Shown here piece by piece: positions 19,723-57,090 of a stretch of 64,000 nt of DNA. The notes beneath the pieces were generated by a model, which ran no database searches, was not told where the DNA came from, and was given only the letters and a program-made list of their open reading frames with translations. The stretch is from Malacoraja senta (taxonomy: Eukaryota). The DNA lies in the NCBI GenBank assembly GCA_038087875.1, contig CM075994.1, positions 11,224,001-11,288,000 of the forward strand. Direction: 5' to 3'. Position 1 is the stretch's first letter; the number at the start of each line of letters is the position of its first letter. The position numbers were made by a program, and so were the translations under genes.

Positions 19723-19745
19723 AATGCGTCCTCGCTTTAAAAGTG

Positions 19746-33680: not shown

Positions 33681-35502
33681 ATTACATTTTCACTTTGGGC
33701 TAACAAATTATTTATTGCCAATACATTGCAGACTCTCAGTTCAGTTGAATCACAGCTTAGAATCACAGTTAGGGACTCTCCCTCACAATTTTCCAGAGTG
33801 AGTGACTCACGTCCGGCATCCGGGGCTAAATACTCCCGCCCCCCGGAAGGGGCGTTGCCTTCACCATGGTGAGAGGACCAATCAGCTAATCTCACGATTT
33901 TTAAACATTCATATTTTTTTATTTTTCAGCGATCGGAAAAATCTTTGGGGCTGCTGCAGTGGAGGAGGACTGTGAGTAAGATGGCAAAATTCATAGCGAT
34001 ATAGGGTACCGTTTTTTCTAAAAATCAATTAACTACAGAGAGGAAATGGTCAAGATGAGACTTTTAGTATAATGACAGATATTATTAATTCAGATGAATG
34101 GATTACAGGTAACATTAGCAAATTTGCACATGACACAAAGCTGGGTGGCAGTGTGAACTGTGAGGAGGATGCTATGAGAATGGAGGGTGACTTGGACAGG
34201 TTGGTTGAGTGGGCAGATGGCATCGCAGATGCAGTTTAATTTGGATAAATACATTATCCTTCATTGGTAGCAAAATAGGAAGGCAGATTATTCTCTAAAT
34301 GATGTCAAATTGTGAAAACTGGAAGTACAACGGGATCCCGAGGTCCTTGTTCATCAGTCAATGAAAGTAAGCACGCAGGTGCAGCAGGCAGTGAAGAATG
34401 CGAATGGCATGTTGGCCTTCATACAAGAGGAGTCGAGTATAGGAGCAGATAGGTCCTTCTGCAGTTGTACGGGCCCCTAGTGAGATCACACCTGAGTATT
34501 GTGTGATGTTTTGATCTCCAAATTTGAGGAACGACAATCTTGCTATTGAGGGAGTGTAGCGTAGGTTCACAGGATTAATTCCCGGGATGGTGGGACTGTC
34601 ATATGCTAAGAGAATGGAACGGCTGGGCTTGTATATTCTGGAATTTAGACGGGTGAGAGGGGATCTTATTGAAACATATAAGATTATTAAGGGTTTGGAC
34701 ACGCTAGAGGCAGGAAACATATTCCCGATGTTGGGGGACTCCAGAACCAGGGGGGCACTGTTTAAGAATAAGGGGTAAGCAGTTTAGAACGGAGATAAGG
34801 AAACAATTATTTCACACGGAGAGTTGTGAGTGTGTGGAAGCCGGTTTTCTGGATACTTTCAACAGAGAGCTAGATAGGGTTCTTAAAGATAGCGGAGTTA
34901 GGGGATATGGGGAGAAGGCAGGAACGGGGTACTGATTGTGGATGATCAGCCATGATCACATTAAATGGCGTTGCTGGCTCGAAGGGACGAATGGCCTACT
35001 CATGCACCTATTGTCTATTGCCTAAACAGCCACTTTTTTGTTATGTGTTGTGCAATATTTCTGTCACATCTTCAAACTCATTCAGAGTCTCGGTAAATTT
35101 GATTGTTCGCATAATCATAGATATCTCCTCAGATTTTAATTGCACATGATACTTGTAAAACATAAGAGAGTGTGCATATTGCAATTTGTTGGTGCAGCTA
35201 ATGGAGAAAATTCAAAAGAAACCGCATTAAAGCGTTTACAAAAATATTTAAGCTGATAACCGATGTTTGATGTATTGACGATTTCAACAGCAGAAACATG
35301 TCTCTACAGACTACCATTTTAACAGTGATGAAGGGCATGAAACAAACAACCTAATTAACGTGATCGTGATTGAATAATACCAATCTCATAGCGTGTTGAT
35401 TCCACCCTTGAGGTTTCTGTAAAGTATAAGTACGAGCTAACTTTGAAATCGGGAGATCCGTGAGCCTATTGAACTGACTAGAAAGGCATCTTCCAACTAA
35501 AT

Positions 35503-35572
35503 ATGAACAGGCATGCACTCCCGAAGACCGAGAGTATTTACTATCCTATTCTTGCAATCATTGGAGTCCCAG
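35503..35572 (+). CDS. GPR139/GPR142-like class A GPCR, coding exon 1
   Basis: ATG..MNRHALPKTESIYYPILAIIGVP plus G, then a GTAGGT donor (phase 1). The YYP..IGVP motif supplies the first half of TM1 that the downstream ORF lacks. Confidence 0.85.
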
Positions 35573-38169
35573 GTAGGTGAGCCAGAGAATGGTTTTACAG
35601 ATGTTCGTTGATGTGATTGACAGACGATATTGAACATCATGGCAAACATATCTGAAAACATTACAGATTTCTATGAAATTATTATTGCAAACAAAGTGCT
35701 GTCAAAAACAAAGTATCGTGCTGATCTCACTTGTGTACTGGATCTAAAAATCATCTGGAAAAATGATTGAATTTCTCTGACCGTAAAATTATATATAAAC
35801 GTTTTATAAGTAATATAATATTCTATATATTTTATATTAGTCAAGCCCACTGGACACAACAAGCCCTCCTTCTCCACCTCATACACAGTCCACCTGAACA
35901 ATGGCCGATTCAACGCATCCAAAGAGGGGTCTGCATATAAACGCGATGTTTCAAGCTCTTTATATTTTCATTCCATGCAGTTGATTTTGCATAGCTTCAT
36001 TATACGAAGAACAAGTAAACGTACGGCGGCTTGCTGCTGAGCATTATCGATCATAACTGATTTTAACTTTAGACTTCACGGCCGAAATTTAAAAAAAAAC
36101 GGTTTGATGGATGCTGTTCTCTGTATTCTGTAACTCTCGCTAAAGAATGTCAGTCATGTGTGCGAGTCCGTGCGCATGTTATGATCGCAGGTGCCTCATC
36201 TGTCTGATAACTTACCGCGAAATAAAACATGCAAGTCGAGGGATGCTGTCGGTGAGTTTCCATAAAACACACGTCTTTTTATTTCCATTGTGAATGCTCA
36301 GCTAAATTAGCTCACGGTTTACTAAGGCTGAGCAACGTGGTTTCTTTTAAAGCATTGTAACATTTAAATACAAGTTGCACAAAGTGAAACTGTCTAATGG
36401 TCCTGATGTGACCTAGATTTGACAGCAGGAAAAATAAAATTCGCCGTTGCATTTCAGGAAGATTTAATTTTATATTCAGCAGACATTCAGAAGAAAGGTA
36501 AAACACTTATTGCTTTTAGACACAAAATGCTGGAGTAACTCAGCGGGACAGGCAGCATCTCTGGAGAGAAGGAATGGGTGACGTTTTGGGTCACCTGTTG
36601 CTTTTAGACTGTTTTGCCAGATTTAATCGCTAATATTTTTGTTCTTATCGCCGGTGATTAAAGTGTTGAGGATCCATCTGCAAACTGCGATGGGTTGTGT
36701 AGCGGAGATTATGGCATGCTCCAAGTTTAGTAGTTTGGGTCGAGACTACGCCTAATCACTTCCAAGAGCACGCTCTCTCTTTAGTTATGATGTTGCTTAT
36801 CACCAAAAGTGTATTAGATGCGGTACCTAGACATTATTGAGCTGAGATGTCGTATGTTCGCATTTAACCCATCAGACCTACAGCAGTCACAGCTCGAGAA
36901 ATTGCATCGTGTTGCTTCTTTAAATGGTTACATATTTGCAAGTGTTCGAGATTATCAAACCGGAATTCAACCTCTTCCTGGAGCCCTTCAACACGTATTG
37001 TCACACGGCCAACAGGGTTATTCCGGGGTTGCGCACGCATACTTCTAGCGCATGGGTCTTACATTTATGTTTCCCAATGAATTCGTCTTGTAGGATAGAC
37101 AACGATCCCACGCATTTAGCGGTTTGCAAACTGCACATTTTTAGCAGGAAAATGCCAACCTGTCAGTCAGTAGAGCGGGTCGGGATGTACTTGTGTTGAA
37201 AGCCGATCATGACGGTTGAAGCAGTGAACTTATCGACAGGTTGTGCCTCTGCCGTTGAGTTGTGTTGCCCGGTTTTTCTTGGCTCTGGAGCAACGGTCTA
37301 CCATCTGTGATTGACTGAATTTCAAAGCGCCAAGACACCACCGAGGGGAGCTGGCGGACTGATGCCGGCCTTTCTGTCGTTCACCACCGTATCGGAAGCA
37401 CACGTGTGTTTAGAATTGGAACTGCGTTTAGTGAGTATGAGCACAATTTGTGTCCGCAACCAATTTAATGCCGTGACGGCAGATAACAAAAGGTAGCGTG
37501 ACAAAATTATTTGAATATGGTCCTGGTCGACGTGGCGGTAGTAATTAAAGCAAGTGATTGCCCTTCCATTTCTCAGTAAGTTTGAATTCTTTGGAAGATG
37601 CTTCAGATGTTTAAATTAAATCGGTTGTTTTAATGCTGAAGTGTTTCATTATTTAGTGTGTTAAATCTATTCCAATATTTTCTAGCTTGCCTTGAGCCAT
37701 TGGAGATGTTTCACAAATGAAACTGGCGATAAATTTTAAGTATCAAAGGTTATCTGGCTTTTCGAAAGTCTGGACCTCGGTCCATGATATGTGTGCCGAA
37801 TTCATGTGTGAATCGCATCCGCCGCACAGCCTCTGTAGCGGATATCAGACGTCAGCCTGCTTGGTCAGCCATATCGGAAATTAATGTGTGTACGTGGACT
37901 CTAAGGGGAGAGAAATGGACAGCAGGTTGCCATGAAAATGTTAATGATTGCCCCCTGCTAATTTATTACAGTAGAGGCACAGAATGAGGAATGTGAGAAG
38001 TGTGTATGCAGAGGGGGGCAACAATGTACATGCTGCTGTGAGCTCTAAATGTCACATTTGCAGATAAGCTGCGAAAATTAAATCTGTGTGATTATCAGTG
38101 GGGAGGCGCGGTTTCCACGAGATAAACTAAGGTAACATGAGTGCCAAACACGTGACAAATCAAATCTGA

Positions 38170-38720
38170 AATTAATAAGCATCTCTAAACATCCTTGGCC
38201 GACGGGTATCCAGCTGCAAATGGGCTTTGGACTTCAGGCCAGGCAGGCTCCTATCACGTGGAATTGGTTTTACCGTCTCCACAAGGATAGCCCACAATAC
38301 TGCTACTGCTCGGAGCTGTGTGCTCAGTCCATGCTCTACTCCAAATACACCCATGTGTGTTTGACCACGTACAACGGTAACTCGGTGTTTATGTATGCCG
38401 ATGATGCCACTGTTGACGGGCACTTCGACAAGAATGATGAGACGAAATAGAGGAAGGAAATCCGGTACATAGTGTCATTAAGTCAGGACACTATCTAGCC
38501 GTTAACATCTCGGCGACACAGTTGCGTGTGAACTAAAGGAAGCGGAGAGGACAAACACCGCCCCATCTCATCTCTATATGTGATCAATATTTCGTGTTAT
38601 GTGGCATTAATATCACCAACACAATAGCTGGTCCCTTCACGGAGATGCGATAACAACAAAGCGCAACAGTGTGTTCACTTTATGAGAAGTCTGAGAATTA
38701 AAAGGGGTCCAACCGTAAAC
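38170..38720 (+). mobile_element. Old Rex1/Babar-like RT relic in the GPCR intron
   Basis: LCAQSMLYSKYTHVC..FMYADDATVDG resembles GCVLSPLLYSLYTHDC..KFADDTTVVG. Confidence 0.6.
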
Positions 38721-38856
38721 CTGTGTAATATAGTTTGCTATTCCAAAGTGTTATAGGCAAGAAAAACTCGTACACGCATGACAAATTGAAGCAAATGAAT
38801 ATATATTTCGCGGGTTATTGCTCGTTCGTAATTCAATTTTCTTCTTTTGGTTGCAG

Positions 38857-39803
38857 CAAATTTGGTGGCAATCCTTATCCTGTCGTCTGGAAAGTGCGGC
38901 CTCACTGGATGTGTCATCCAGTATCTGAAATCAATGGCGGTAGCTGATCTAATGGTACTGGTTTCCAATGTAATACTCTATGAGATTAAAGAGGCATATT
39001 TTCCGCATTCATTCCTCAATTACACGCCCATTTGCCGTTTTGTTATTACACTGAGTTATATTTCGCTCGATTGTTCCGTCTGGCTGACTGTCACTTTTAC
39101 ATTCGATCGATTTGTTGCTATATGTTGCCAGTCGTTGCGTTCAAAATATTGTACCATGCAGACGGCATTGAAAGTAATAACAGCGGTGTTTATGTTGAGT
39201 ATTTTAGAAAATATTCCACTCTACTTTATATTTGAACCACGCAAAGTAATTAATGATGTACCATGGTCCTGTTATGTAAAATCAAGTTTCTACACATTAC
39301 CCACCTGGGTCGTGTATTTATGGTTTGCAACACTCTTAACCCCATTTGCGCCATTTGTGTTGATTCTTCTGCTTAATACCTTGACCATAAAGCATATTAT
39401 CATGGCCAACAGAGTCAGGAGCAAGCTCCGAGGGAGTAATAGAGAGGCGTGTCAGACTGATCAAGAGACTGAGAACAGAAGGAAATCGATCATTTTACTC
39501 GTTGCAATATCTGGCAACTTTATTTTCTTATGGATGGTAAACCTTGTGTTCTTCATCTGTGTACAGTTTACAGATTTTCAATTTATGGAAACAGATTACA
39601 TCGACTCGTTCACCATTGTGGAAAGAAGTGGCTTTATGCTGAGGTGTATGAGTACTTGCACAAACACTTTCATTTATGCAGTTTCTCAGAGACACTTCAG
39701 AGAGGAACTGAAGAATGTAATTTCACGTCCCTTCCTTGCCATTGCTAATATATTCAAACGTTTGAACACAAAACTAACTTTATCCAAATATGTAATCAAG
39801 TGA
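38857..39803 (+). CDS. GPR139/GPR142-like class A GPCR, coding exon 2 (spliced protein 338 aa, intact)
   Basis: Acceptor ttttcttcttttggttgcag| with matching phase (G+CA=Ala). Motifs NLVAILIL, MAVADL, DCSVWLTVTFTFDRFVAIC, ENRRKSIILL, STCTNTFIY; seven hydrophobic segments. Confidence 0.92.
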
Positions 39804-40069
39804 TAATTTGCGACGCACACATATATATCTGTAACATGTAATAGGATTTGTCGTGGTATCCCTTTCCACAATTTCTTGGGATTTTGTCTCCCTATTTAGT
39901 TACCATGAACCAATACTAAACCAAAGTGATATTTTTGAAATATAATGTACGGTCATTGAAATAGTATATTTGTTTACATTTACTCATCCCATTTATGACG
40001 ACAACTTAGTTTGAAGTCCATTGTCTGTCATCAGTAACAGAAAATCGTTCAAGTCAGTATAATATGGTT

Positions 40070-40464
40070 TATTATAAACCGGGCGGAATTAAAGATAGAC
40101 GGAATTTAAAAATAACGTTTTGTGGCCTGACGGACGCCAAGGGTAACTGAAAATGTAAATGATGTTCCTTCCCACTGAGCTGATGTAAACTTTTAACAAC
40201 GATATCATCCAACCTTAAACACAGTTCCTCTTCTTTTTGCCTTTCAATTCTGCACGTGCCTCTTAGAATTTCATATAACTGTATCAGTTCGTCCCTGTTT
40301 TCCCATTTCTCGGCAACCCTTGCCGCAATGCATTTGCCTTCTTTACCCACAAGTATTTGCTTTCGCAAAATTTCTCACTTCTCACATCTTGGGATAAAAT
40401 TCACGTGCAATGTTCCGTCAAGCTTTCTATCTGTTCGATATTCAGCTGCAGGCTCAGTTAATTT
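40070..40464 (-). mobile_element. Old Penelope relic, probably continuing after the L1 at about 46551-46720
   Basis: KEHHLHFQL..SVRPQNVIFKF resembles the Penelope C-terminal EEQHLIFRLG.LQP motif. Confidence 0.45.
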
Positions 40465-40668
40465 TCCTCGCGGTCGACTTCCGGTGGCGCCATGTTGGAC
40501 TAACAGACGTGCACCTAGCTCCTCTCCCGAAAAATTTCACGATTTATCGTGTAAAACGGGTCCAAAAATCGGGATTGTTTTTAAAAACCTTACCGGAGCT
40601 TCTGGTCGCCGCGCTGATGACGTCATCACTAAGCGCGATGTTTTAAACGGTGGTTTGAAGCCCTTTAA

Positions 40669-41817
40669 ATGAGAAAACTGTCTCCAGCTGTGAGCCCTCA
40701 GAGAACAGTGAAAAAGCTGCTGAAAGACCAGAAGAAATCTGAAGCAGAAGTTACCTCTGAAGTCTCTGAAGTCTCTGAAGTGGCTGCAGAAATGGATACA
40801 AGATCTAAGAAAGAGTTTGATGACTTGAAGAAATCAGTGAAAAATATGAAAGATGAGATTTTGGATGAAAATAAAATTATGATGGAAAATATGAAGGAAA
40901 ATATGAAGGAAGATAAAAAGGAAATGAAAGAAAATATGAAGGAAGATAAGAAGGAAATGAAGGAAAATATGGCAAAAATGATGGAAGGAATGGAGAAGAT
41001 GATGAGGGAATTAAATGCTGGTAACCAGAAGAATATGATTGATTCACTGGACATTATGAATAAACGAATTGATGAGGTGAAAGATGGACTATCAGAGAGA
41101 ATGGACAAGATGGATCAAACTAATACGGATAAGTTCACGGCTGTGCTTGAAACAGTAGCTGCAAGTATGCGCACAATTACGGAATTGGAGAAAAACACGG
41201 CTCGAATGGTTAAAGACATGGCGAAAATGAGGCAAGAACATGAGCAAATGAGGCGAGAAAACGAACAAACTTCACTACAGATGGTGACTCAACTGGAGAA
41301 AGTCTCAATCAAATGCCTGGACCTGGAAGCTCGCTCTAGACGCCAGAATTTGAGAATTCTTGGAGTTTCAGAGTGAGCCGAAGGGGAGGATGTACGTGAG
41401 TTTGCCATGGGCTTGCTTAAACAACTGCTGAATCTTTCCAAAGAACCGAAAATCGAAGTGGCTCATCGTGTCCCAAGATTTAAACAAAGATCTGGTGCGG
41501 GAAAAACTTATCCACGACATATTATTGTGAAATTTCGGGACATTTTAGAACTGGAAGATGTTATGAGTAAAATCAAATACGGTGTGCAACTGCGGCTGGA
41601 CAATGATACTATTAAGATATTCAGGGACTACCCGTATGAAATTGTGCAAAAAAGAAACAAATTTGAGAAGGTTAAAGATCTTTTAAGAGGGAGAGAAGGG
41701 ATCAGATTTTGGATTTTTTATCCCGCGAAAATGCGTATTTCCTTTAAGGGTCTTGAAAAGTCATTTGTTAAGCCTGAAGAAGCGTTTAAATATGCTCAAA
41801 CTATCGTTGAAAAATAG
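40669..41817 (+). pseudogene. L1 ORF1p (coiled coil, RRM, CTD) with an in-frame stop at 41374-41376
   Basis: DLEARSRRQNLRILGVSE*, IEVAHRV, PRHIIVKF, IFRDY, YPAKMRI. Confidence 0.9.
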
Positions 41818-42635
41818 AAAGGAAAGGGAGATCTGAACCATTTTAAGCAATGCTTTGTCTGGGGATAGTTACACTGTTATCTTCGGAATGTTGAATCAAG
41901 GACACTTTTTGTTCAAAACGAGTAAACAACTGAACAGATGGCAATGGTATATACCAGAAAGCATATAATTGCTTATTAGATTATAATATTATAACCAATT
42001 GTAAGAACTTATCCTATTAACAACTTAATAAGTTATGCTTGTTAGATTAGAATACTAATAAAAACAAAAATAAAAAATAACGAACTAACATACTAATATG
42101 AATTTTTAATAAACTGAAACCTTATCTATAAGTGGGAGGAGGGGATGAGAAACGAGCAACTGGCTTAGGTCCAGGGGCACGTCTCGTTAACCCCTTCAAC
42201 CATCAGTTGATTCTTATTGAAGTCAAAAATATTGGTTTAATAATTAAACTCCGATATATATATATGTTACAATGAAACATACAGGGTAAAAGTGTATTAT
42301 ATATCTGAATGTGAGGCCCCGTTTTAATATTATAATATGTTATGATTAACCAAGAGAGCGGAGCTATTTGTGTAACAACGCAATGGAAGTCAAAATAAGG
42401 TTTTTTCCCACCTACAGGTGGGACACTCGCTACAGTGCCGACTATATCAGACACTGTATCTTCACTTTTTTAGTTTTTTTTTTAGCACATGAAATCACTT
42501 GTTTGTGTTTTGTGTTTAGTGATAAGCGTAAAATGGACATAACAGCAAAACTTAAAAACTCAAAAGCTCCCCCAATACCTAAAGACCTGGGATTTGGATG
42601 CACCACAAGATTTAAAGGTACTATAATTATTCAAA

Positions 42636-45600
42636 ATGCATGACACCACACAAAAGAACCTAGGAAGAATCTCATTTTGTAGTTGGAATATAAGAGGTAT
42701 TAACGAACCTATTAAAAGGGGTACAATACTAGCTCAGCTGAAATTGTACAACTCCGACATTATCTTCCTACAAGAAACACACCTAAAATCTCAGGATCAA
42801 GTTAGGTTGAGGGCGAAATGGATAGGTCAAACATACCATTCTTCATTTACTTCAAAGTCTAGAGGCACATCAATCATCATAAGAAAAGGTATACCATTTA
42901 AAGCAAAGAATATTATAACAGATATAGAAGGGAGATACCTAAAAGTTAATGGAGAAATCCATGATACTCCACTTACTTTGGTAAATATATATGCCCCTAA
43001 CTTTGATAACCCCCACTTTTTCAATAAAATTTTCAACATAATTGCAGAGTCAAACTATCAAAATGTTATAATAGGAGGAGACTTTAACTGTGTTTTAGAT
43101 CCGTACTTAGATAAATCAAGTCAAAAACAGAGAGGGAATATGAAATCGAAAACTGGGGAACTTCTCAATACCTATATAAACAACACTAATATAGCAGATG
43201 TTTGGAGAATTGTTAATCCAACTGGCAGGGAATACTCGTTTTATTCAATGGTACATAAGACATACTCACGTATAGACTACTTTCTGCTGGATACAAAATT
43301 AATCCCCCAAACATCTAATGCAATATACCACACAAACTCGATTTCAGACCATTCTCCACTAACTTTCTTTTTAAAACTGGAAGGATTGTCTAAGAATAAA
43401 ACGTTTTGGAGATTTAATTCTCAAATTCTAAAAGATCCACAAGCGAGTATATATTTAAAAGAACAAATGGAGGTCTTTTTTCAAATAAATGATACTCCAG
43501 ATATATCGCCTACTGTATTATGGGAATCTTTTAAAGCATACATTAGGGGTATTATAATTTCATATCAAGTTTTTCAAAATAAAAAGAATAAGAATGAACA
43601 AAGACAGTTAGAAGAACTTATTAGACAAATGGATATAGATAATGCTAAAGATCCATCAATAGATAAACATAATAAAATAATAATTTTGAAATTTAAATTA
43701 AATAAATTATTATCTGCCAAACTTATAAGACTTTTTCAAATTACAAAACAAGAGCACTTTGAATTTGGGGATAAACCGCATAAACTTTTGGCTCGCCAGC
43801 TAAAAAAACGAGAAAAGGAACATACTATACCAAAGATCAAATCAGATAAAGGGGAATTATTAACAACACCAAAGGATATTAATAATAGATTTGCGCAATT
43901 TTATGAGAATTTCTATACATCTAAAACGACAATTGATTCCAATAATATCACAAAGTTCTTGGATACCTGTAATCTTCCAAAGTTAGAACTGAAGGAACAA
44001 GAGGAACTGGGTGCACAAATCTCAAGATTAAGTAAATACATTAGTAAATTAATAAACCCAGATCAGACGAGGTTTATCCCTAAGAGATACTCGTCTAACA
44101 ATATGAGACGTCTACTCAACATAATGCACTCACACAAATCTGAAGATGAAGAATTATCAATTATTTCGCTGGATGCTGAAAAAGCATTTGATCAAGTAGA
44201 ATGGAATTATATGGACAAAGTATTACAAAAATTTCAACTGGGGGTGAATTTTATTCTATGGATCAAGTTACTATATAACAAACCTACAGCTAGAATACTA
44301 ACTAATATCATATTATCCTCGAAATTCCAACTATCAAGGGGAAATAGACAAGGATGCTCATTATCACCACAGCTGTTTGCTCTCATTATTGAACCGCTAG
44401 CAGAAAAAAATAGAATACACCCTGATATCCATGGATATAATACTAAAGATTCATATAATAAAATATCTTTATACGCGGATGATATATTACTGTACATTAC
44501 AAAACCTCAAATCACTATACCAAATATATTAAATTTAATTGAAGATTTTGGATCTTTTTCTGGATATAGAATAAATTGGAATAAAAGTGACATTATGTCA
44601 ATAAAACCGAAAGATTCAACACATCTTTTAAAATTCCCTTTTAAAATAGCTACAGAAAAATTTAAATATTTGGGAATCGAAATTACCAGATCATATCAAG
44701 GTATGTTTAGGGCAAATTTTGACCCCTTACTTAATAAATTAAACACACTAATTAAATTCTGGAAAACGCTCCCGATGTCTTTAATAGGCCGAATAAACGC
44801 AATAAAAATGATCTTTTTACCACAAATTTTATACCTATTTCAATCAATTCCTATATACTTACCAAAGAAGTTTTTTAAAAAACTCGACTCAGATATCACT
44901 AATTTTATATGGGACTATAAATCACATAGAATACAAAAAACTCATCTGAATAAACCTAAAATATTAGGGGGTTTAGCACTACCTAATTTTATGTATTATT
45001 ATTGGTCAGTAAATATTAAAAATATGATTCAACTGATGGATAACTCGGCCCAGCAAGCGGACTGGATTGTAATGGAGAAAGAGGATTGCTCCTCTAGAAA
45101 CATTGGAGCGATCCTCCTCTCTCCAATGAAATTGAATAACATAAATTATAATAAGAACCCAAATATTCATAGTACAATCCGAATTTGGAAACAAATAAAA
45201 CAAAATTTAAAATTAAGAAATTTATCACTTTTATTACCTATAGTCAATAACCCTTCGTTTAATCCTTCTATTATAGATAAAGCTTATACACAATGGGATA
45301 GATTAGGAATTAAAACGCTTGGTGACTTGTATGAAACTGGAAAATTACTTTCATTTCAACAATTACAAATAAAATATAAACTCGGAAATAATCAATATTT
45401 TAAATATTTTCAAATATGCGACTATTTGAAAAAATATACAAAAGATCATCATAATAACCCAGCAGATGTACTGGATGAGGCAATGCAGATATAAGCGGAA
45501 TCAGCAAACTTAATATCATATTTGTATAATATTATCTTAAATGCACAAATACCATCTACGGAGGGTATCAGAAGAGACTGGGAACAAGAGTTAGCTATTA

Positions 45601-46142
45601 AAATTTCAAAGGAAAGATGGAATGAATACTTATTACACGTGCATAAATGCTCGATTAATGTAAGACACACTTTAATACAATTTAAAATTTTACATAGATT
45701 ATATAATTCGAAAACTAAAGTTCATAAAATTTTCCCAAATGTATCATCTATTTGTGATAAATGTCAATCCCAAGAAGCTACCATAACGCACTCATTCGTT
45801 TCTTGTACAAAAATTCAAAAATTTTGGAATGACATTTTTGAAATCTTTACAATGTTATTTAAAACAAGACTGATACCCAAAGCAGAATGGATTATCTTCG
45901 GTATACCGGAAGATGGTGCAGAACTAAATGTGTTTCAAAAGAAACTAATGGACTATGGGTTAATAACTGGAAAAAAGCTAATTCTAAAATTTTGGAAGAA
46001 GGCTCCAATACCAACTATAAATATGTGGATTTCAAATATGTTTGAAACATTACACCTAGAAGAGATAAGACTCCTCCTAGAAGGTAAACCAGATCACTTC
46101 CACCTGACGTGGTCTGCATTTATAGAATTATTACAAACATAG
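42636..46142 (+). pseudogene. L1 ORF2p (APE, RT, Cys-rich region) with an in-frame internal deletion and a stop at 45492-45494
   Basis: SWNIRG, LQETH, GGDFN, SRIDY, SDH; SLDAEKAFD, RQGCSLSP, YADD; CDKC..HSFVSC. Confidence 0.92.
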
Positions 46143-47819
46143 GGTGCAAAAGTACTTAAAAAAAAATTGAGGTCAGGTAAGGGGGGATGATAGTTGAAGA
46201 GTTGGTATGTCCCATTTACGTAATGCTCATAAAAATATTTGTTTCTCTCTTTTTCCTCTTTCTCTCTTTCTTTCTTTCCTAGGGTCTATTTCTTAACTCT
46301 TTTTCTTTTGTTTTTAATTTTGCTCTTATAGGGTCTTCGTCCTTTTTTGTTGTCACATTTCCTACACTTTCACTTTTTCCTTCACTTTCTTCTTTCTTTC
46401 CATCTTTTCCTTTTCTAGTGTAAAAAATAAATGGAGTACATTAGTTGTAAGAAGATATAAATGACAAGTACTAATTTTATGTGGTTGTAATATAATGTAC
46501 TTCTAATAAAATACAAATTTAAAAAAAAAAAAAAAAAAATCCTCGCGGTCCACAACATCCATGTTTTTCCTGTCATCCTCAAACTCGCTAATCATATATC
46601 CAACATACGCACCGAATTAGCAATTTTATGAAAAAAAGCAAAGATCCATCACCGATCTAAACTCCACCGGTGGCCGCATATTTTCTAAGGAGATAATAAA
46701 TCTTCAACCACCACCCCGGGGCCTTATCACAAAAATGACAACATTGCATTGATCTCCCTGTGAATTAGACTACTGGCCTGCTCTACATTGTGAGATCTTG
46801 ACAAATGCCTGAATAAAATTCATTTAGGCATTGTTCACTGCCTTCATCCATATTATTAAATGCCGTAATATTTGTGAAGTGTTCCCACGCACAATTACAT
46901 GCTGACTATACCCGATGAGACATTGCTTCAGATTTAACGCTCCTTGGATCATAAGACTTTCAGAAATTGGAGCACAATTAAGTTATTCGACCCGTCGACT
47001 CTGCCAGTCGATCATGGCGAATTGTCTTTCCTTCTCAACCGCAATCTCCTTCATTCTCTCGGTAGCTTTGGACGTCCTTGCTGATCAAGGGCATTTGTAT
47101 CGGTTATCGGTTTATAAAGTACCATATGTTCTGACCTCTACAGCCGTTTGTGGCAAAGACTTTCAAATATGCACCGCGTTCTGGCTAAACAATCTCCTCT
47201 TTTGACCACTATAATCCTTATTCATTCAATGACTTCTAAGTGCACTCCATACCTTGATATGATCCATAATAGGTAAATAAACTTTTGTTACCCTGCTACA
47301 ACATCATTAAATGTTTGCACAGTTGCCGCAAAGGAAAGTGCAAATTACTGGGATGGAATAATAGAAAAACGTGGAAGCTAAAACCTTTTATATTTCTCCA
47401 CCGGAACGTTGACTGTTGCTCGTCCCACAGATAATGGTTCTCCAGCATTTACTGTTTCCAGTTCAGATCAGCACATTTGTTACTTGATCTTCACCTTACT
47501 ATCTGAATGAAGGTGGCAATTGAATAGTTTAACAACCTGCGACTCCTAAACTAGTATGAAGCAAAGAATAGGTTGTGTAAACAGGCCCGTACGAAGCTTT
47601 ACAAAATGGGGGGTGGCATGACAGGATTACAAAAAAATTAATGTAAAATAATGTGCGCGCTGCGCACATGACGAGCGCGAAGCGTGAAGTCCCTCGATGC
47701 CAGGGTCCAGGGCCCGCTTAAGGGCCCATGAAGCTCAGGGGTTTTTGATGCTCTCTGATGCATCCTGAGCCTTATTTTGGAGCTTTTTGCAGCAAATCTA
47801 TGACCAATATTTCAGAAAT

Positions 47820-50647
47820 TTACAGGAATCTGAGAGGTAGCTTTTTCACACAAAGGGTGGTGGGTGTATGGAACGAGCTGCCAGAGGAGGTAGTTAAGGC
47901 TGGGACTATCCTAATATTTAAGAGACATTTTGACACGTACATGGATAGGACAGGTTTAGATAGATATTGTCCAAACGCGTGTGAGTGGGTCTAGTGTAGA
48001 TGGGACATGTTGGTCAGTGTGGGCAAGTTAGGCTGAAGGGCCTGTTTCCACACTGCACCACTCTATGACTAAAAAGTTAAGAAGAAAAATGCATGTAGAT
48101 AAGTAGAGCAGATTTGAAAGTGAAATGTAAAGGCAGAGAGAGGTTTATGGGTGGAAAGATACATAGGAAAGGAGGGGGAGGGTGGGCTTGGGCAGATAGA
48201 TGAACGGAAAATAGACGCAAAGTGCTGGAGTAACTCAGTGGGTCAGGCAGCATCTGTGGAGAACATGGATGGGTGACGTTTCACGGAGTGCTGGAGTAAC
48301 TCAGTGGGTCAGGCAGCATCTCTGGAGAAAAGGTATAGATTATATTTCGAGTTAAGCCCCTTCTTCAGTAATATGCATGATGTGACATGCATAGACATTC
48401 CTGCATGTCACCCAAACCATCGTGAACTACTTTGTGACGGTGCTTGCCCTTTCCTACAACGTCTCTGCTGCCTTGGGTGATGCAGGACAGGACACGAGCT
48501 TTGGGACATGGTGTGAAGCTGTTGCAGTCTGTCCCAGCCTGGTAAAAGCCTGGATGGAGTGGATGTGGAGAGGATGTTTCCACGAGTGGGAGAGTCTAGG
48601 ACCAGTGGCCACAGCCTCAGAATTAAAAGACGTTCCTTTAGGAAGGATATGAGCAGAGGGTGGTGAACTGTGGAATTCATTGCCACAGACAGCTGTGGAG
48701 GCAAGTGGACATTTTTCAGAAGGAGATTGATAGATTCGTGATTGATACGGGATTCAGAGGTAATGGGGAGGGCAGGAGAATGGGTTTGAGAGGGAAAGGT
48801 ATTTAGTCATAGAGTGATACAGTGTGGAAACAGGCCCTTCGGCCCAGCATGTCCGATCTACACTAGTCCCACCTGCCCACGTTTGATCCATATCCCTCCA
48901 AACCTGTCCTATCCATGCACTAACTGTTTCTTTAATGTTGCGGTAGTCCCTGCCTCAATTACCTCATCTGGCAGCTTGTTGCATACACCTACCACACTTT
49001 GTGTGAAAAATATACCCCTCAGATTCCTATTAAATCTTTCCCCTCCATCTTAAACTTATATCCTCTGCTCCTCGATTCACCTACTCTGGGCAAAAGACTC
49101 AAGAGAGTTCAAGAGAGTTGTATTGTCATGTGTCCCTGATAGGACAATGAAATGCTTGCTTTGCTTTAGCACACCAGAACATAGTAGGCACGAATACTGA
49201 ACAGATCAGTGTGTCCATATACAATTGCATAAATATATACACACATGAATAATTACACTGATAAAGTGCAAATAAACAGATTATTGGCTATTAATGTTCA
49301 GAGTTTTGTCCGAGCCGAGTTTAATAGCCTGATGGCTGTGGGGAAGTAGCTGTTCCTGAACCTGGTCGTTGCAGTTTTCAGGCTCCTGTACCTTCTACCT
49401 GAAGGTAGTGGGGAGATGAGTGTATGGCCCGGACCTGATCTATTTAAATAATGATTTTATACACCTCTATTAGATCATCCCTCATCCTCCTGTGCTCCAT
49501 TAAACAGATGTATGGAGTCAACCTGATCTATTTAAATAATGATTTTATACACCTCTATTAGATCACCCCTCATCCTCCTGTGCTCCATGAAATAGAGTCC
49601 CAGCCTACTCATCCTCTCCCTATAGCTCTGGCCCTCTAGTCCTTGCAACATCCTCGTAAATCTTCACTGTACCCTTTCCAGTTTGATGACATATTTCCTA
49701 TAACATGGTGCCCAGAACTGAACACAATACTCTGAATGCGGCCTCACCAACTTCTTATCCAAATGCAACATGACCTCCAACTTCTATACTCAGCCTGACC
49801 CGCTGAGTTACTCCAGCACTCTGCGAAACATCACAGAACAGGGCAAGATTAACAAGTTTGCTGATGATACAGAAGTGAGTGGTTTTGCAGGTAGTGGATG
49901 TGGTTGTGAAAGATTGCAGCAGGATCTGGATCAATTAGCCAGGTGGGCAGAGGAATGGTTGATGGTTGCATGGTTCCTTGAAGGTCGAGTCGCAGGTATA
50001 TCAGGTGGTCAAAAAGTATTTTGGCACTTTGGCCTTCATCAGTCAGAGTATTGAGTAAAGAGGTTGGGAGGTCATGTTGCAGTTGTATAAGACGTTCGTG
50101 AGACCGCATTTAGAATATTGTGTTCAGTTCTGGGCATCATGTTATAGAGAGAAGTCAAACTGGAAGGAGTACAGGAAAGATTTATGAGGATGTTGCCAGG
50201 ACTAGAGGGTGTGAGCTATCGGGAGAGTTTGAGTAAGTTGGGACTCTATTCCATGGAGCGCAGGAGGATGAGGGGGTATCTTATAGAGGTGTACAAAATC
50301 ATTAGAGGAATAGTTCGGGTAGATGCACAGTCTTTTGCCCAGAGTAGGGGAATCGAGGACCAGATAACATAGGTTCAAGGTAAAGCGGTAAAGATTAAAT
50401 AGGAATCCGAACGGTAACTTTTTCACACAAAGAGTGGTGGGTGTGTGGAACGAGCTGCCAGAGGAGGTAGTTGAGGTTGGGACTATCCCATCGTTTAAGA
50501 AACAGTTAGGCAGGTACATGGATAGGACAGGATTGGAGGGATATGACCAACCGCAGGCAAGTGGAATTAGTGTAGTTGGGACATTGTTAGCCGGTGTGGG
50601 CAAGTTGGGCCAAAGGGCCTGTTTCCACACTGTGTCACTCTATGACT
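47820..50647. mobile_element. Cluster of CR1 3' fragments (both strands), Penelope terminal-repeat pieces and a Rex/L2-like tail
   Basis: FFTQRVVGVWNELPEEVV at 47820-48070 and 50400-50647; minus-strand CR1 at 48786-49790; insert at 49100-49432. Confidence 0.75.
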
Positions 50648-50681
50648 ATCCATGTTCTCCATTGATGCTGCCTGACCCATT

Positions 50682-51610
50682 GCGGCAGATTGTGGTTCCT
50701 CAGCTGCTGTAGGAAGAACATCATCTGTTGTGCCTTTTTGACTGTGGAGTCAAAGGTAGCCCCCCACTTAAGGTCATTGGAGATGATGGTTCCCAGGAAT
50801 ATAAAAGACTCCACAGATGTGACTGTGGTGTTGTTGAGGGTGAGAGGGGCGAGGGGAGGGGAACCTCTCCTAAAGTCTGCAATCAATTCCACTGTCTTAA
50901 GAGCATTGAGCTCCAGGTTGTTGCTACGGCGCTAGGACGCCAGCTGTGACACTTCCTGTCTGTAGGCAGATTCCTCCCCATCCTGGATCAGTCCAATAAG
51001 GGTTGTGTCGTCCGCAAACTTGATAAGCTTGACAGAGGTGTCTGTGGAGATGCAGTCATTGGTGCAGAGAGAGTAGAGGAGAGGGGGGAGTACGCAGCCT
51101 TGCGGTGCTCCTATGCTGAGCGTTTGCGGGTCCGATATGTGCTTTCCCAGCCTCACACGCTGCTTCCTGTCTGTCAGAAAGTTGGTGATCCACCGACAGA
51201 GGGGTTCAGGCACAGTCAACTCGGAAAGTTTGGAGTGTAGTAGCTCTGGCACAATGCAGAGCTAATATCAACAAATAAAATCCTCGCAAAGGTCCCCTGG
51301 CGTTCTAGGTGCTGGAGGATGAAGTGCAGGCCCAGATTGACTGCGTCATCCACAGATCTATTGGGCCAATATGCAAACTGCAGGGGGATTGTGATATTTT
51401 TCAGCTTGGCCAGCACAAGCCTTTCGAGTGTCTTCATGACTACAGAGGTCAGTGCGACAGGCCTGTAGTCATTAAGACAAGTAATCCTTGCCTTTTTGGG
51501 TACAGGGACAATAGTGGGGACTTTGAAACAGGCAGGGACAGTACATGTTTGCAGGGACAGGTAAAAATTGTCTGTGAGATTTCCGGCTTTTCTGTCTTCT
51601 GAAAAGCCTC
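50682..51610 (-). mobile_element. Rex1/Babar-type LINE RT fragment
   Basis: [45 protein letters not shown]. Confidence 0.85.
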
Positions 51611-52209
51611 TCCACCTCCTCTATTTTTATTGTTGATGAAGTGATGTTGTTCAGCAAGGAGGGAGTGGGTAATTGGGTGTGAAGTAGTGATTGGAGTGTG
51701 GTGGGTGTAGAAGGGTCCAGTCTTTGCAGACTGAGGTCAGGCTGTGAGTGGGTGTGAAGTGTCGGTTGGAGTGGGAAAGGGTCCAGTCTTTTCATGCTGG
51801 AGTCTTGCCTTATGTAGGTGTGAAGTGGTGAATGGGAAGGAGATGGTGCAGGGTCCATTCTTTGCAGACTGGGGTCTGGCTGTGTTTGTTGGGGAGGGGG
51901 TACCAGGGTTACGTTTCTGATTTTCAAACCTGCAGTAAAATTCATTCAGATCGTTGGTCAGCTGACGATTATCTAAAGAGCGGGAGGCTTTCCTCTAATA
52001 GCTCGTGATTTCTTGCATGCTCCTCCAAACTGAAGAAGAGTCACTGGCTGAGAACTTGCACCTCAACTTCTCAGAGTACATTTTCTTGGCAGCTCTGATT
52101 CCGCTTCTCAGCTCTTTATCGGTTAGGCAATCTTTTAACTTTAACGATTAGGCTATCGCCTTGACGCATATTTGCTTTCTCCTTTCTCCCTCCCAAGCAA
52201 CGTTGGAAG

Positions 52210-52435
52210 GCCCGCGGCGGCGGAGGGGAGGGAGAGGCGAGGGTCCGCGGCACAGGGGTGGAGAGGCGATGGTCCGCAGCGAGGGGGGGGAGAGGCGAGG
52301 CTCCGCGGCGGGGGCGGAAGGAGAGGCGAGGGTCCGCGTGAGGGGGAGAGGCGAGTGTCCGCGGGGGGGGGGGAGAGGCGAGTGTCCGCGGCGGGGGGGG
52401 GGGGTGAGAGGCGAGTGTCCGCGGCGGGGGAGAAG
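52210..52435. repeat. G-rich tandem repeat, unit about 27-30 bp
   Basis: Unit gagaggcgagggtccgcggc(g)n, about 8 copies. Confidence 0.8.
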
Positions 52436-52855
52436 CGACGATCCGTGACGGGGGTGGGGGGTGACGTGGGCGGAAGATGGCGTGTGCCCGGTGTCTATTG
52501 TTGCGGGCTATATTTTCTTTCACTGCGAGTTTTAAGTTACTGCCTCTGATGATTCTACTGTTGACCGGAAGGTGTCTGGTTGTCGGAATATTACAGGGAA
52601 CAAACAGAACAATAGAAAGAAAAGTGTATTCAAATGACGCATTGTCGTATATGCTATCATCTGTTTTTTATTATCCGTGAACATCTTATTCATTAAGAAG
52701 TTTCTGTTCGCTCTAATGTACAATGATATATATTTTCATTATAATAACTCCAAAGGTCCGTTTCATGTGGTTATGGCGGTAGATATTTTATCTCACAAAA
52801 GTTTACAAGTATCGACATGAATCAATCTTGATTGAAAGGTTGGATGAAAGGTTCG

Positions 52856-53178
52856 GACGGTCACGGTTGGTCTGCGACAGAGTTGCTGCCTTACAGCGAA
52901 TGCAGCGCCGGGGACACGGGTTCGATCCCGACTAAGGGCGCTGTTTGTACGGAGTTTGTACGTTCTCTCCGTGACCTGCGTGGGTTTTCTCCGATTTATT
53001 CGGGTTTCCTCCCACACCCCAAAGACGTACAGGTTTGTAGGTTAATTCGCTTGGTAAATGTTTTTTTTAAATTGACCCTTGTCGGTGTAGGATAGTGTTC
53101 ATGTGCGGGGATCGCTAGTTGGCACGAACCCGGCGGGCCGAAGGGCCTGTTTCCGCGCTGTTTCTCTAAAACTAAACT
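52856..53178 (+). mobile_element. tRNA-derived V-SINE (HE1-like)
   Basis: B-box GGTTCGATCCC; V-domain-like gagtttgtacgttctc..gcgtgggttttctcc..ggtttcctcccaca; CR1-like 3' end gggccgaagggcctgtttcc. Confidence 0.8.
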
Positions 53179-53429
53179 GTACAAATTAAAAAAAGAATCT
53201 ATATTTCAATAACACACACCATTCGCTTCATGTATTATTATGCAACAATATGATTATTACTCTGGGGCAATGCAAGAAGGTATTTTAAGCGAAATGCCAC
53301 ATGCGTTTCTTGCAGACGATACTTGTTGTTTCGTATAAAGGTATTAAAAATCGAAATGATTGTTCAAAATTGAATATATTTCCAAGGGAAGGATCATTGT
53401 AAAAAATGTTAGCATACGTTCTGAAATCT

Positions 53430-54490
53430 GTAACATAATGTTTGCAGCAAGGAGAAAGGAAAAGTTGTGCTTATGATGGACGTCCCCTTTCTTGAGTAAC
53501 CGTAGTTTCCCCGCTGCTATGATGGGTGCATCATCACCCACATCTCCTCTGGGTCTTGCAGTTCTGCTCTCGCTCCCCTTGCCTCCGCACGGAACTACGA
53601 AATGGTTCCCCAGGTCCTTAAATTTCAGCCACCTGCCTCCTTATCCAACACATTATTCTCCATATCTACCCCACACATCTTCCCATCCCCACTACTTCTC
53701 GGCTTCCATAAAGACCGCTCTCCCTTATCCGTTTGCAGCCTAACCACCCTCTCCCCAGGTACCACCCGCTACAGCACAGGAGATGTAACACCTGCCATCA
53801 TGCATTACATCCGTCCAATGCCACCAGTAGTCCTTCTACGGGAGAGAGAGGTTCGCATGCACGTCCACTGACGTCATCTGCTGGTTTTGGTGCGTCCGAT
53901 GTGGACTCTTTACTTCGGCAAGACCAAGCGTTGACGAGGCGACCATCTCACCGAATAGTTGCTCTCGGTCGGGGAGGTGGTACACCATATTCCGGTTATT
54001 AAACATTAAAACTCGATTACCCATTCCCACATGCATTCGTGTATTTGGCCTCCTTCATTGTTAGAGTAATGCCACACGTAAGTGTTGGAACACCATCTCA
54101 TATTCCGCTTGAATATTTTACAAATTAACGGTATGAGCACTGAACCCTTCAATATTTGGTAACTAACCGAAACTACTACTCCCCCCTTCGACCCCCACCC
54201 TCTACCCCCCCCCCTGCGATTCGCCCCAACTGCCTTCGCACTCGTGTCTCCCTTCCCTCTATCCACGTGAAACCATCCGCCGATCAACCCCCTTCACCTA
54301 TCCACCTACCATGCCAGACTTTGTCCCAATCTCAACTCTCTTCCCTCTATCTACACAGGAACAAGCACAATCAGTATGAAGAATTCCCTGACCAGAAGAG
54401 TTAACGAACCATGTTCCCCAAAGGTACTGTATGACGCTGTAAATTACACCAGCAATTTGTGTCTACAATATCTGCAGTTTCTTGTGTCTT
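53430..54490 (+). mobile_element. Old Penelope 3' fragment
   Basis: Nucleotide similarity to the reverse complement of 11520-12500; LEHHLIFRL motif; decayed terminal repeat. Confidence 0.65.
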
Positions 54491-54844
54491 CATATGTGTG
54501 AACGTATTGGATTAGTTGTTAGCCCGTGTTAAACGAATCCAGATATAGCACCACCTTCCCTGATGATTTTCAACGTACACGACAATTGATCTTCCGCTTT
54601 TTTCATCCCCCGTCTCTCTCGGGTAATAGGATTGTTGCACCCCGATTTCCACAGTAATCTTGAACGTACTTCACAGCTTTCTATATATTCCCCCATTAAT
54701 TACGCTCTGTAACATTTGATCTGATGACGATCATCTGCATAATATTTTTCACCGTATGACGTCTCCCACCGCATCCACACCAACCATCGATCAACCTGGC
54801 AAACTTGCTCTGTGTTGTCCCACTTTGTCCATTCAGATGCCACA

Positions 54845-55025
54845 AACAAGAGGCAACTTACAGATGCCAATTAACCTACCAACTTGAAAGTCTTTGTGAT
54901 GTGGGAAGAAGTCGGAGCATCCAGTGGAAAATGCAGTCACATTGAGAATGTGCAAATTCCAGACAGATATCATCCGAGGTGAATGTCAAACTTGGGTCAA
55001 GAGCTCGGTGAGGCAGCAACTCTCT
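54845..55025 (-). mobile_element. Decayed V-SINE copy
   Basis: aattaacctac..gtctttg..tgtggga matches the reverse complement of 53010-53047. Confidence 0.5.
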
Positions 55026-55744
55026 TCCGCCCATTACTCAGCTCACCCACTCTGCGCAAACTACTGAATGTCGCGTAGACATATTGGAACGAGCCAGGCT
55101 ATGTAAATATCCATCTCCCTTTTCATTCTCTATACCTTTACAGTATCGACAGGTTTTGCCAGGCTTTCCAAAGATGCCAGGAGTTCCCTTTCAATTTGAA
55201 CGTACTGCGGGCATATTAAGGTGACATCTCGCCATACACCATTAATAACATTTCCTCGTTCCCTTTTCCATATTCATTTCCACCTGCTTCTATCTCCAAT
55301 CAGATGAGCCGTGACGCGCAAGTCTAAAGCACCCTCGACATCCGATACCAATACCACGTCCGCCCGTGAGTCTCCCCTGCTCCTCATTCTACCATAAGCT
55401 CTCTCCGCTTAGTAGATTCGGTCATTCAGTCCACTATGGAACTGCAAATATGCAGATGTTCCAATGAGATTTCTTTGACCTGAAACGCTTTCTCTGATGC
55501 ACTCTCCTCGGATATTGCATGACATGCGAGTATTCTCAGTGGTTCCCTTTTCACTCAAGAACCAGTGTTCCCACTGAAAATTGGACGAACACGTCCACTT
55601 CCCAAACCCCCGCTCTCACACTCGCACACAAACGGACTAACACATTTTAAGTTGGTGTGAAAAATACTTTGTGTTAAAATAAGCAAAAATTTTCAGAAAT
55701 ATTTATTTCAAGTGAAACAAATCGCGAAATAGTGCCTGTGATTT

Positions 55745-56045
55745 GACTTATGACTTAGATTCCTTAATTGTCATTCAGACCTTTCGGTCTGAACGAAATT
55801 TCGTTGCCTGCAGTCATACATATAATAAATAACAAAACACACAATAAACACAAATTAACATCCACCACAGTGAGTTCACCAGGCACCTCCTCACTGTGAT
55901 GGAGGCAAAAGTCTTAAAGTCTCTGTCTCTTCCCTCTTTGTTCTCCTTCTGCGCTGAGGCGATCCAGGCTTCTGACGCTGTGACCCCGCCGGGTGATGGC
56001 AAATCAGTCCCGCGGCTGAATCCGTGCTCCGCTCCGCGACGGGCG
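55745..56045 (-). mobile_element. 3' fragment of a GC-rich retroposon or LINE tail
   Basis: Hairpin ttcagacc-tttc-ggtctgaa; motif acatccaccaca..cactgtg shared with 19185-19230. Confidence 0.55.
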
Positions 56046-56196
56046 ATATGCTTTTTCGGGATACGAATATGTATGGCAGCGATGTAAACAGGAAAAACGC
56101 TAATGTATTACCCATTACAAATTTAGTCCTGTGCATCGTAAATTAAAATTCCATTTGAATGTGCATATGTCCCCTGAGTTTGTCAAGCTGTGTCTT

Positions 56197-57090
56197 TCAC
56201 TTCAATAATTTAGAAAGTAAAACAAGAGGCCGTTTAATCATTTTCTTCATTTCATCTCTGAAGTTTCGTTGGGACGCAGCATAAATGAACGTGTTTGGAC
56301 AAGTGCTTAAAACTCTTAACTGGAATCCAGTTTCTTCTGCAACGGCGAATGATCTCTGTAATCAGATTTCATCAGTTGATTATCGGTAAAATGTAGAGCA
56401 TCAAAGCAAGCAAAATTTACCGTCCACAATAGAAGGAAACGACCAGATATCGCGAGTAGTAAAATGATCGATTTCCGTCGGTTCTCAATTTCTTAATCCA
56501 TCCGGCACTTCTCACTTTCGTTTCCCCGTAATTTGTTTCTGATTCTGTTCGCCCGTATAATATGACTTATTGTTAAGGCGTTGAACAGGAAGATCAACAC
56601 AAATGGTAGAAATAGTGTTAAGATGGTCTCTAACTATAAGAATGCAGCCCAAATAGGTAAATTATAGAAGCTTGATTTTGCAGTGCAGTATCGGGGCACA
56701 TTGTCAATTACTTCACGTGGTTCAAGTAAGATGAAAACCGGCATATTTTCGACAATGCATAATAAACAAACGATCGTTATAACCGTTGTTGATTTTTTTC
56801 AGTGCAGTACTTAGTTTTTAACGACTGACCACAAATAGAAACAAATCGATCAAAGGTAAACGACACAATCGGAACAATCAATAACAATATAAATCAAGGT
56901 CATATTGAGACGGCAGATTGGAGTGTAATCTAGGACTGAACGTGGAAAAACGCATCATTAATCTCAAAAAGTATTGGACCAAATATCAGATGCGATAGGT
57001 TAGCTGCCGCCATCCATACTAGATACCGGGTGATGCATATGGAGAGCCCACACTTTCCGGTGGACAGGATGGAGATTGTCAATATATTAG
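56197..57090 (-). pseudogene. GPR139-like GPCR paralog, exon 2, disabled
   Basis: Acceptor ctttattctttgcag| in the same phase as the intact gene. NILTISILSTGKCGLSICITRYLVWMAAANL, FTFDRFVSIC, ENRRKSIILLLAISG, STCPNTFIYAASQRNFR. Several frameshifts and stops. Confidence 0.9.

Follow-up and report, generated by a model that had tools for sequence, protein, structure and literature searches.

A large, clustered family of GPR139-clade receptors in sharks and rays as a candidate chemosensory repertoire

Cartilaginous fishes, whose olfactory organs are large, are reported to carry about 8 OR-like, 3 ORA, 3 TAAR and 2 TARL genes and about 35 genes of the V2R type (PMC11979771), and the authors of a catshark study conclude that V2Rs dominate olfaction in that animal (PMC10116579). 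The closest described receptor to the genes treated here is GPR139, in which Trp and Phe are recognised at a site comprising F3x33, H5x43, W6x48 and N7x38 (PMC5430874). We analysed a 64,000-nucleotide stretch of the genome of Malacoraja senta (assembly GCA_038087875.1, contig CM075994.1, positions 11,224,001 to 11,288,000, forward strand; hereafter the window, in whose coordinates features are given), which contains an intact receptor gene at 35503-39803, type A, and a pseudogenised paralog, type B. Judging from sequence, we consider with moderate confidence that the family to which both belong is a chemosensory receptor repertoire of sharks and rays, probably deployed in olfactory neurons.

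The original prediction had joined a 70-nt exon to a 947-nt exon to give a seven-transmembrane protein of 338 residues, and an in silico splice reproduced this product, with DRF at residues 107-109 and NTFIY at 293-297. Exon 1 (35503-35572, plus strand) runs from the ATG to a phase-1 GT donor and encodes the N-terminus and the first half of transmembrane helix 1 (TM1), and after a 3.3-kb intron (35573-38856, plus strand) exon 2 (38857-39803, plus strand), an open frame of 947 nt behind a pyrimidine tract and an AG acceptor, continues from N1.50 in TM1 to helix 8. The junction 35572^38857 was deduced from sequence rather than reads, and finds support in the 534 genome-wide matches to an exon-1-plus-donor pattern, compared with 1 for the control, and by the annotated shark and ray homologs, which begin at the same Met. 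A second pattern of this kind gave 30 matches against 2 for its control, and the 201-nt exon-1 region was 97-100% identical in all 40 scored genome copies (the best 40 of 72 candidates). Exon 2 matched Pfam 7tm_1 with an E-value of 1e-18 and 68 bits (cut-off 30.5), the only model above cut-off in a scan of the receptor in which Srx and PEN-2 fell below it. An AlphaFold model built from an 88-sequence alignment, used in place of a single-sequence model with a pLDDT of 45, reached a pLDDT of 85 and had seven helices plus helix 8; its top Foldseek matches were all class A receptors, with GPR139 at rank 25 and not singled out. As far as homology and modelling indicate, the intact gene is a class A (rhodopsin-like) G protein-coupled receptor (GPCR) with two exons.

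Within the same 88 sequences D107, R108, C83, C162 and W249 are invariant, and the third residue of the DRY motif is F. In the generic receptor numbering, which was placed by motif anchors, Thr occupies 7.50 in 87 of the 88 and Pro occupies 6.50 in none, so that the prolines of NPxxY and CWxP are missing. The short N-terminus, DRF and NTFIY are traits of the whole family and not particular to the window copy. What does set this copy apart within a set of 47 close type A copies is Gly at residue 41 (Arg in 45 of the 47) and Ala at residue 181, position 5.42, where the others have E, D, K or G; being unique in both, it may be newly retuned or beginning to decay.

The family is very large. Searching the 1.94-Gb genome with exon 2 gave 126 scored matches (the best 126 of 3,362 candidates), all at least 57% identical, among them at least 56 type A copies with a protein identity of 88% or higher. 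The family motif FTFDRFV had 1,301 genome matches, with tandem arrays on many contigs, compared with 7 for the reversed control, and when 40 matches hand-picked from the first 100 listed were inspected, 38 proved to be family members at 38-55% identity, 28 of these with an open exon 2. By this count the Malacoraja senta genome holds more than 1,200 motif-bearing loci, which bears out the earlier proposal of an expanded repertoire of clustered, diverged copies with pseudogenes and disposes of the possibility of only one or two copies. In a protein database 2,009 of 3,417 candidates passed; the best 120 comprised 111 named shark, skate or ray proteins, mostly under the mistaken automatic label 'probable GPR139', and 9 unnamed ones. 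Chimaera members appear among the matches to the exon-junction region, and the tree described below contains subfamilies common to this genome and to sharks. No paper on the family was found by literature searches, which mostly miss subscription journals, and the string '139' is absent from the main text of the catshark sensory genome paper (PMC11979771). A head-to-tail array of about 24 genes of another subfamily, at G000:C1:111.44-112.13 Mb on the largest scaffold, represents a second recent expansion.

The type B exon 2 lies at 57090-56197 on the minus strand, convergent to the intact gene, and shows 50-62% identity in its pieces; compared with an intact paralog it has four frameshifting deletions and two in-frame stops. 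The original prediction of a dead paralog with the same intron stands as regards orientation, pseudogenisation and the acceptor, which agrees with the intact gene in position and phase; the other side of that intron is missing, as no type B exon 1 was found in the window or in the next 30 kb. In sister type B pseudogenes a candidate exon 1 lies some 5 kb upstream. On the contig of the window, type A genes alternate with type B genes in convergent pairs. The interval 20251-64000 is part of a block of at least 50 kb that carries the A-plus-B cassette and recurs in inverted orientation on the same contig, at a distance of about 130-240 kb and with 99.4-99.6% identity. Of 40 scored matches, 31 were type B copies with a DNA identity of 94-100%. 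None of the 30 copies examined is intact; a one-base deletion near codon 72 is present in 29 of them, and a stop at codon 179 likewise in 29. Because each of these two lesions is common to 29 of 30 copies, type B must have broken once, before amplification, and been carried along since, which rules out an independent death of the neighbouring paralog and makes type B usable as a neutral control. The window represents a single unit of an intact-plus-dead cassette that has been amplified recently. Four intact type B genes exist at other loci (L071-L074, on G000 C1013, C5096 and C3238); they carry DRW or DRC instead of DRF, while the window pseudogene keeps DRF.

The amplification of a dead gene beside a live one, in a 50-kb block duplicated at 99.5%, could also indicate that the many copies arose as a by-product of segmental duplication in repeat-rich regions and that unpurged haplotigs inflate their number, with the genes drifting or serving another role such as gamete recognition. 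Many copies do lie on small contigs, and with 4 identical pairs among the 56 type A copies some inflation of the count by haplotigs is possible. The 52 distinct type A sequences nevertheless require at least 26 loci in a diploid, 7 type A copies of at least 89% identity are found on the contig of the window itself, and the sharing of subfamilies with sharks speaks against a by-product of this kind, as does the pattern of selection.

Selection was compared over 300 codons in 47 of the 56 type A copies (4 duplicates, 2 copies with stops, 2 frameshifted copies and 1 with a deletion were dropped) and in 28 distinct copies of the 30 type B. With distinct alleles counted once each, omega (dN/dS) in type A was 2.04 in the predicted pocket and 0.40 in the cytoplasmic half (p = 9e-16 for the difference), the pocket exceeding both the synonymous rate (p = 6e-5) and random extracellular sites (p = 0.0007); the dN/dS test proposed with the original prediction is thus positive at the pocket. 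In the type B control the corresponding values were 0.72 and 1.35. Among 28 type A copies with flanks, diversity at codon positions 1 and 2 was 0.110 in the pocket and 0.010 in the cytoplasmic half, as against neutral yardsticks of 0.027 in the intron, 0.028 in the 3' flank and 0.032 at fourfold sites, and type B gave 0.013 and 0.033. The predicted pocket thus evolves about four times faster than neutral DNA. Drift cannot explain a pocket four times as diverse as the intron when the cytoplasmic half has only a third of the intron value and the pseudogene duplicated alongside shows no such contrast, and we regard the by-product explanation as improbable.

In a fit with purpose-written code for codon models, for which a DNA tree supplied the branch lengths, model M2a was preferred over M1a in type A with 2dL (twice the log-likelihood difference) of 99.8, with 48% of sites assigned an omega of 0.07 and 7% an omega of 5.2. 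Ten sites were flagged: 61 (2.57), 90 (3.32), 145, 171, 177, 181 (5.42), 258, 264, 280 (7.36) and 283 (7.39). No recombination was detected in the intact copies (p = 0.34), and some was detected in the pseudogenes (p = 0.01). CpG hypermutation as a source of the pocket variation appears unlikely from the codons, with the qualification that sites 61, 65 and 258 do touch CpG context. The intact copies are under purifying selection in the cytoplasmic half and diversifying selection at the predicted pocket.

Fast recent amplification combined with strong pocket selection is also typical of host-pathogen races. The family could accordingly be imagined as an immune or pathogen-sensing repertoire on leukocytes or barrier epithelia, comparable to formyl-peptide or Mas-related receptors, with microbial ligands driving the pocket diversity and EBF1 acting in the B-cell lineage. 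The very short N-terminus, however, would leave no docking segment of the chemokine-receptor type. A profile of the family searched against PDB ranked GPR139 first (human 7VUG/9M42, E = 7.8e-17; the window protein taken singly matched human GPR139 with an E-value of only 6e-5), and chemokine receptors, a point in favour of the immune proposal, were among the next matches.

The true GPR139 of this genome was found with an alignment-derived pattern at a single locus, G000:C5:81989026-81989955, whose product is plainly GPR139. No second copy was present among 128 scored candidates, and the family members are 24-31% identical to it. We placed the family in a tree of 54 rows (LG+G4), a subset of the available rows that was chosen for run time and does not include GPR142. 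The 27 elasmobranch members formed one clade (95/86), with a salamander gene pair as its direct sister (100/91); coelacanth, teleost and bichir-type sequences and one unnamed vertebrate orphan came next (100/99 for all 34), and GPR139 was the sister of this 34-row clade (97/86), followed by unnamed receptors of invertebrate type. The family therefore groups with GPR139 and invertebrate peptide-type receptors, apart from the genome's other sampled class A receptors, which argues against the immune proposal. Both the GPR139 and the family branch are long, so that attraction between them is possible, although the shared TM1 intron, with the same acceptor codon and phase before N1.50 in the true GPR139, agrees with the grouping. 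These sequence comparisons support placing the family within the wider GPR139/GPR142 clade, as sister to GPR139, and the GPR139 likeness originally seen in the TM1-splitting intron and the YY..G motif is real, both features being shared. A one-to-one GPR139 ortholog, which would have undone the idea of a separate family, is ruled out by the separate single-copy GPR139, the low identity and the tree. GPR142 gave no stand-out match among the 128 scored candidates, in a comparison that contained no bona fide GPR142 sequence.

The two receptors have in common the YY..G.PAN start of TM1, Asn at 5.58, Trp6.48, an aromatic residue at 3.33 and the lack of Pro at 7.50, the last of which can be regarded as a clade trait since GPR139 lacks it too. 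The family differs from GPR139, which is single copy, in lacking Pro6.50 and in having a cysteine pair between C3.25 and extracellular loop 2 that GPR139 lacks at 3.25. At the positions of the GPR139 Trp/Phe site it keeps F or Y at 3.33 and W6.48, and has E or D at 5.42 in 83 of 88 sequences and Y or F at 7.39 in 86 of 88. Two of the four residues that GPR139 needs are thus replaced (H5x43 by E/D, N7x38 by Y/F); on this ground we reject Trp/Phe sensing inherited from GPR139, and the earlier suggestion of amino-acid sensing of the GPR139 type finds no support. The predicted pocket is acidic overall, with D3.37 in 83, E2.62 in 80 and E7.35 in 86 of the 88 sequences in addition to E/D5.42.

Upstream of the intact gene, on the plus strand, are a TATA box (35425-35430, 78 bp before the ATG), an EBF(O/E)-like palindrome 21 bp above it (35404-35413), at a position that is occupied across subfamilies, and, further up in the proximal promoter, a homeodomain-like CTAATTA word (35351-35357) and a forkhead-like word (35341-35348). 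We compared 24 promoters in set 1 (26 distinct ones from 50 loci, less 2 that lacked a proper start), 20 in set 2 (30 loci) and a holdout (L303-L342) of 17 dereplicated promoters, in which exon 1 was found in 24 of 40 regions and 15 promoters had a TATA box. A TATA word occurred in 20 of the 24 set-1 promoters (8.7 when shuffled), mostly 60-100 bp before the ATG and at about 80 bp overall. An EBF-like palindrome, called at two or fewer mismatches to the EBF consensus, was present within 48 bp above the TATA box in 11/24, 11/20 and, in the holdout, 11/15 promoters, compared with 2.4, 2.7 and 2.2 in shuffled sequence, mostly at -21 to -25 relative to TATA. A stricter holdout gave 5/7 against 0.9, the exon-1 criterion having been loosened between these two tests. 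A promoter consisting of an EBF-like site and a TATA box is conserved across the family, and binding by EBF is predicted.

Other words gave a more mixed picture. The homeodomain word was found in 15/24, 7/20 and 3/17 promoters (4.9, 4.5 and 3.0 shuffled), and hence is enriched in set 1 only, and the forkhead word in 9/24, 5/20 and 3/17. Homeodomain and EBF sites form a composite at one offset in 5 of 53 promoters, where about 0.02 would be expected. The EBF consensus taken over the whole 300 bp was weakly enriched in set 1, the loose O/E word YYYCARRRR was unenriched in sets 1 and 2, and unanchored Gibbs sampling of the promoters did not converge. A CRE-like word occurred in 5/17 holdout promoters against 0.8 shuffled, the word having been picked after viewing the sequences. 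As for the immune proposal, EBF1 is indeed a B-cell factor, but NF-kB, Oct, RUNX and IRF words were unenriched in the promoter sets where they were tested, and an ETS word reached p = 0.03 in set 2 only, with far-upstream DNA equal, and was unenriched in two of the three sets; we consider an immune role unlikely.

The forkhead-like word conserved in a subset of promoters would also be compatible with a chemosensory repertoire outside the nose, in solitary chemosensory cells of the skin, taste buds, ampullae or endocrine cells of the gut, and GPR142 is itself a gut and islet sensor. In the catshark, OR-like and V2R-like genes are reported to be expressed in ampullae, gills, stomach and scattered epithelial cells (PMC11979771). 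On the other hand, the element that runs through the whole family is the EBF-like site, and no motif of OR promoters is better supported than this one; the POU/Oct word is unenriched. We rate a non-olfactory repertoire as slightly less likely than an immune one.

Among the runs on record as RNA none contained the gene, and no join across the intron was listed. Runs X1-X5 covered intron and exons alike and are DNA, uninformative on expression; runs X7-X9, merely guessed to be RNA, hardly covered the gene and are evidence neither way. The exon junction was spanned in none of 9 Logan-derived homologs, and the 58 matches in a search with the junction region were all annotated gene models. Catshark olfactory neurons are described as all expressing Go and TRPC2 in an almost continuous layer, with 5.9 labelled cells per mm for v2r1, 2.8 for taar1a and 0.45 for ora2 (PMC10116579); comparing layer with label densities, we infer that many of these neurons may lack a known receptor.

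Taken together, the conserved signalling face, the diversifying selection at the pocket, the more than 1,000 clustered genes and the O/E-TATA promoter are best accommodated by a chemosensory repertoire. In such a repertoire, EBF factors would switch on single members in sparse sensory neurons, and the acidic pocket formed by D3.37, E/D5.42, E2.62 and E7.35 would bind water-soluble, probably cationic ligands, for instance amines or basic peptides. Each paralog would be tuned differently through substitutions at 2.57, 3.32, 5.42, 7.39 and 7.43. Through their conserved inner face, all members would signal via a single G protein, probably Go acting upstream of TRPC2, a proposal made because all catshark olfactory neurons carry both (PMC10116579).

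Several observations weigh against this interpretation. Birth-and-death evolution with pocket selection is likewise seen in immune receptor families, and EBF factors are active also in B cells, other neurons and fat. The 26 pocket positions follow the class A literature and were placed by motif anchors. Overall pN/pS is 0.8-1.0 in type A and 1.0-1.3 in type B, so that the intact average is near 1, as drift would have it; such an average therefore says little, and the split between pocket and cytoplasmic half is the informative quantity. Type B, too, was nominally significant for M2a over M1a (2dL 14.8), without a conserved class, which means that the M2a test alone is liberal. The promoters are homologous, and their counts therefore reflect conservation across subfamilies of about 45% protein identity and not independent enrichment; moreover, the EBF window and consensus were set after viewing sets 1 and 2, and left unchanged for the holdout. 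The window copy's own EBF-like site is weak, with three mismatches, the homeodomain word is unenriched in the holdout, and a strict pattern finds the abutting homeodomain-EBF composite in only 6 of 53 promoters. Finally, the 50 most specific genes of a catshark brain-plus-olfactory library, as given in PMC11979771, include no GPCR, which is true of the V2Rs too.

The remaining elements of the window are mostly repeats. Between the two receptor genes lies a near-complete LINE (40669-46142, plus strand) with ORF1-like frames and an ORF2 encoding endonuclease and reverse transcriptase with one internal stop, and the intron of the intact gene contains a very high-copy SINE-like repeat of about 77 bp (36517-36593), for which each of four DNA runs yielded more than 100,000 contig records. 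A broken pol of LTR-retrotransposon type (14054-18208, plus strand) retains pieces of reverse transcriptase, RNase H and integrase. A pair of similar GC-rich repeats, separated by about 42 kb (18903-20151 and 61620-62750), possibly lies near the cassette boundaries. Beyond the type B exon, on the minus strand, a faint TM2-like relic of a third receptor (57664-57774; 7 bits, E = 0.04) may be due to chance, and a LINE fragment (58333-59010), near which similarity to a sister B locus ends (beyond 58640), may mark the loss of the type B exon 1 from this unit.

Outside cartilaginous fishes, the nearest relatives are bony-vertebrate orphans that also bear the name 'probable GPR139' (salamander XP_069092602, coelacanth XP_005988539, teleosts and bichir) and fall in one clade with the family; only a few clusters of them were found, whereas shark and ray proteins number in the hundreds. 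The name GPR210A/B has been given to orphans of fish and coelacanth from this region of the tree (PMC6504862), with which, judging by tree neighbourhood, these sequences are possibly identical.

The family would be at least 20 times larger than the reported olfactory sets, hidden under an automatic name, and its size would change the olfactory picture. In the strongest form of this idea, which we put forward tentatively, sharks and rays would smell mainly through an unrecognised fifth receptor family from the GPR139 clade, with about 1,000 genes that are switched on by O/E sites, as mammalian odorant receptors are, and that positive selection is still retuning; if true, it would overturn the view of elasmobranch olfaction as the work of a few dozen V2Rs. 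Should the family be immune instead, it would still be a very large unstudied vertebrate GPCR expansion. The cassette is useful as a compact panel for ligand finding, because its roughly 50 young paralogs differ mainly in the pocket and come with a built-in neutral control.

Pfam models of OR, V1R and class C receptors gave no match to the family at an E-value of 0.001, and TAAR membership was judged only through the aminergic-type outgroups of the tree; by sequence, the family appears to lie outside OR, TAAR, V1R and V2R, though it probably works like an olfactory repertoire. In the mouse, OR gene promoters show an enrichment of O/E, homeodomain and TATA sites (PMC3247239; also PMC5608512, PMC3247230). 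Some family promoters resemble the Lhx2/Ebf composite of the mouse Greek Islands in that a homeodomain word immediately precedes a degenerate EBF site, at a single spacing, but the mouse composite is reported to mark enhancers and to be rare in promoters (PMC5608512), whereas that of the family sits in the proximal promoters of a minority of subfamilies. With the vertebrate olfactory repertoires as a whole (OR, TAAR, V1R/ORA and V2R/OlfC) the family shares large clustered gene numbers, pseudogenes, diversification of the pocket and an O/E-plus-TATA promoter; it differs from them in the coding intron within TM1, and in that its expression in sensory neurons is a prediction.

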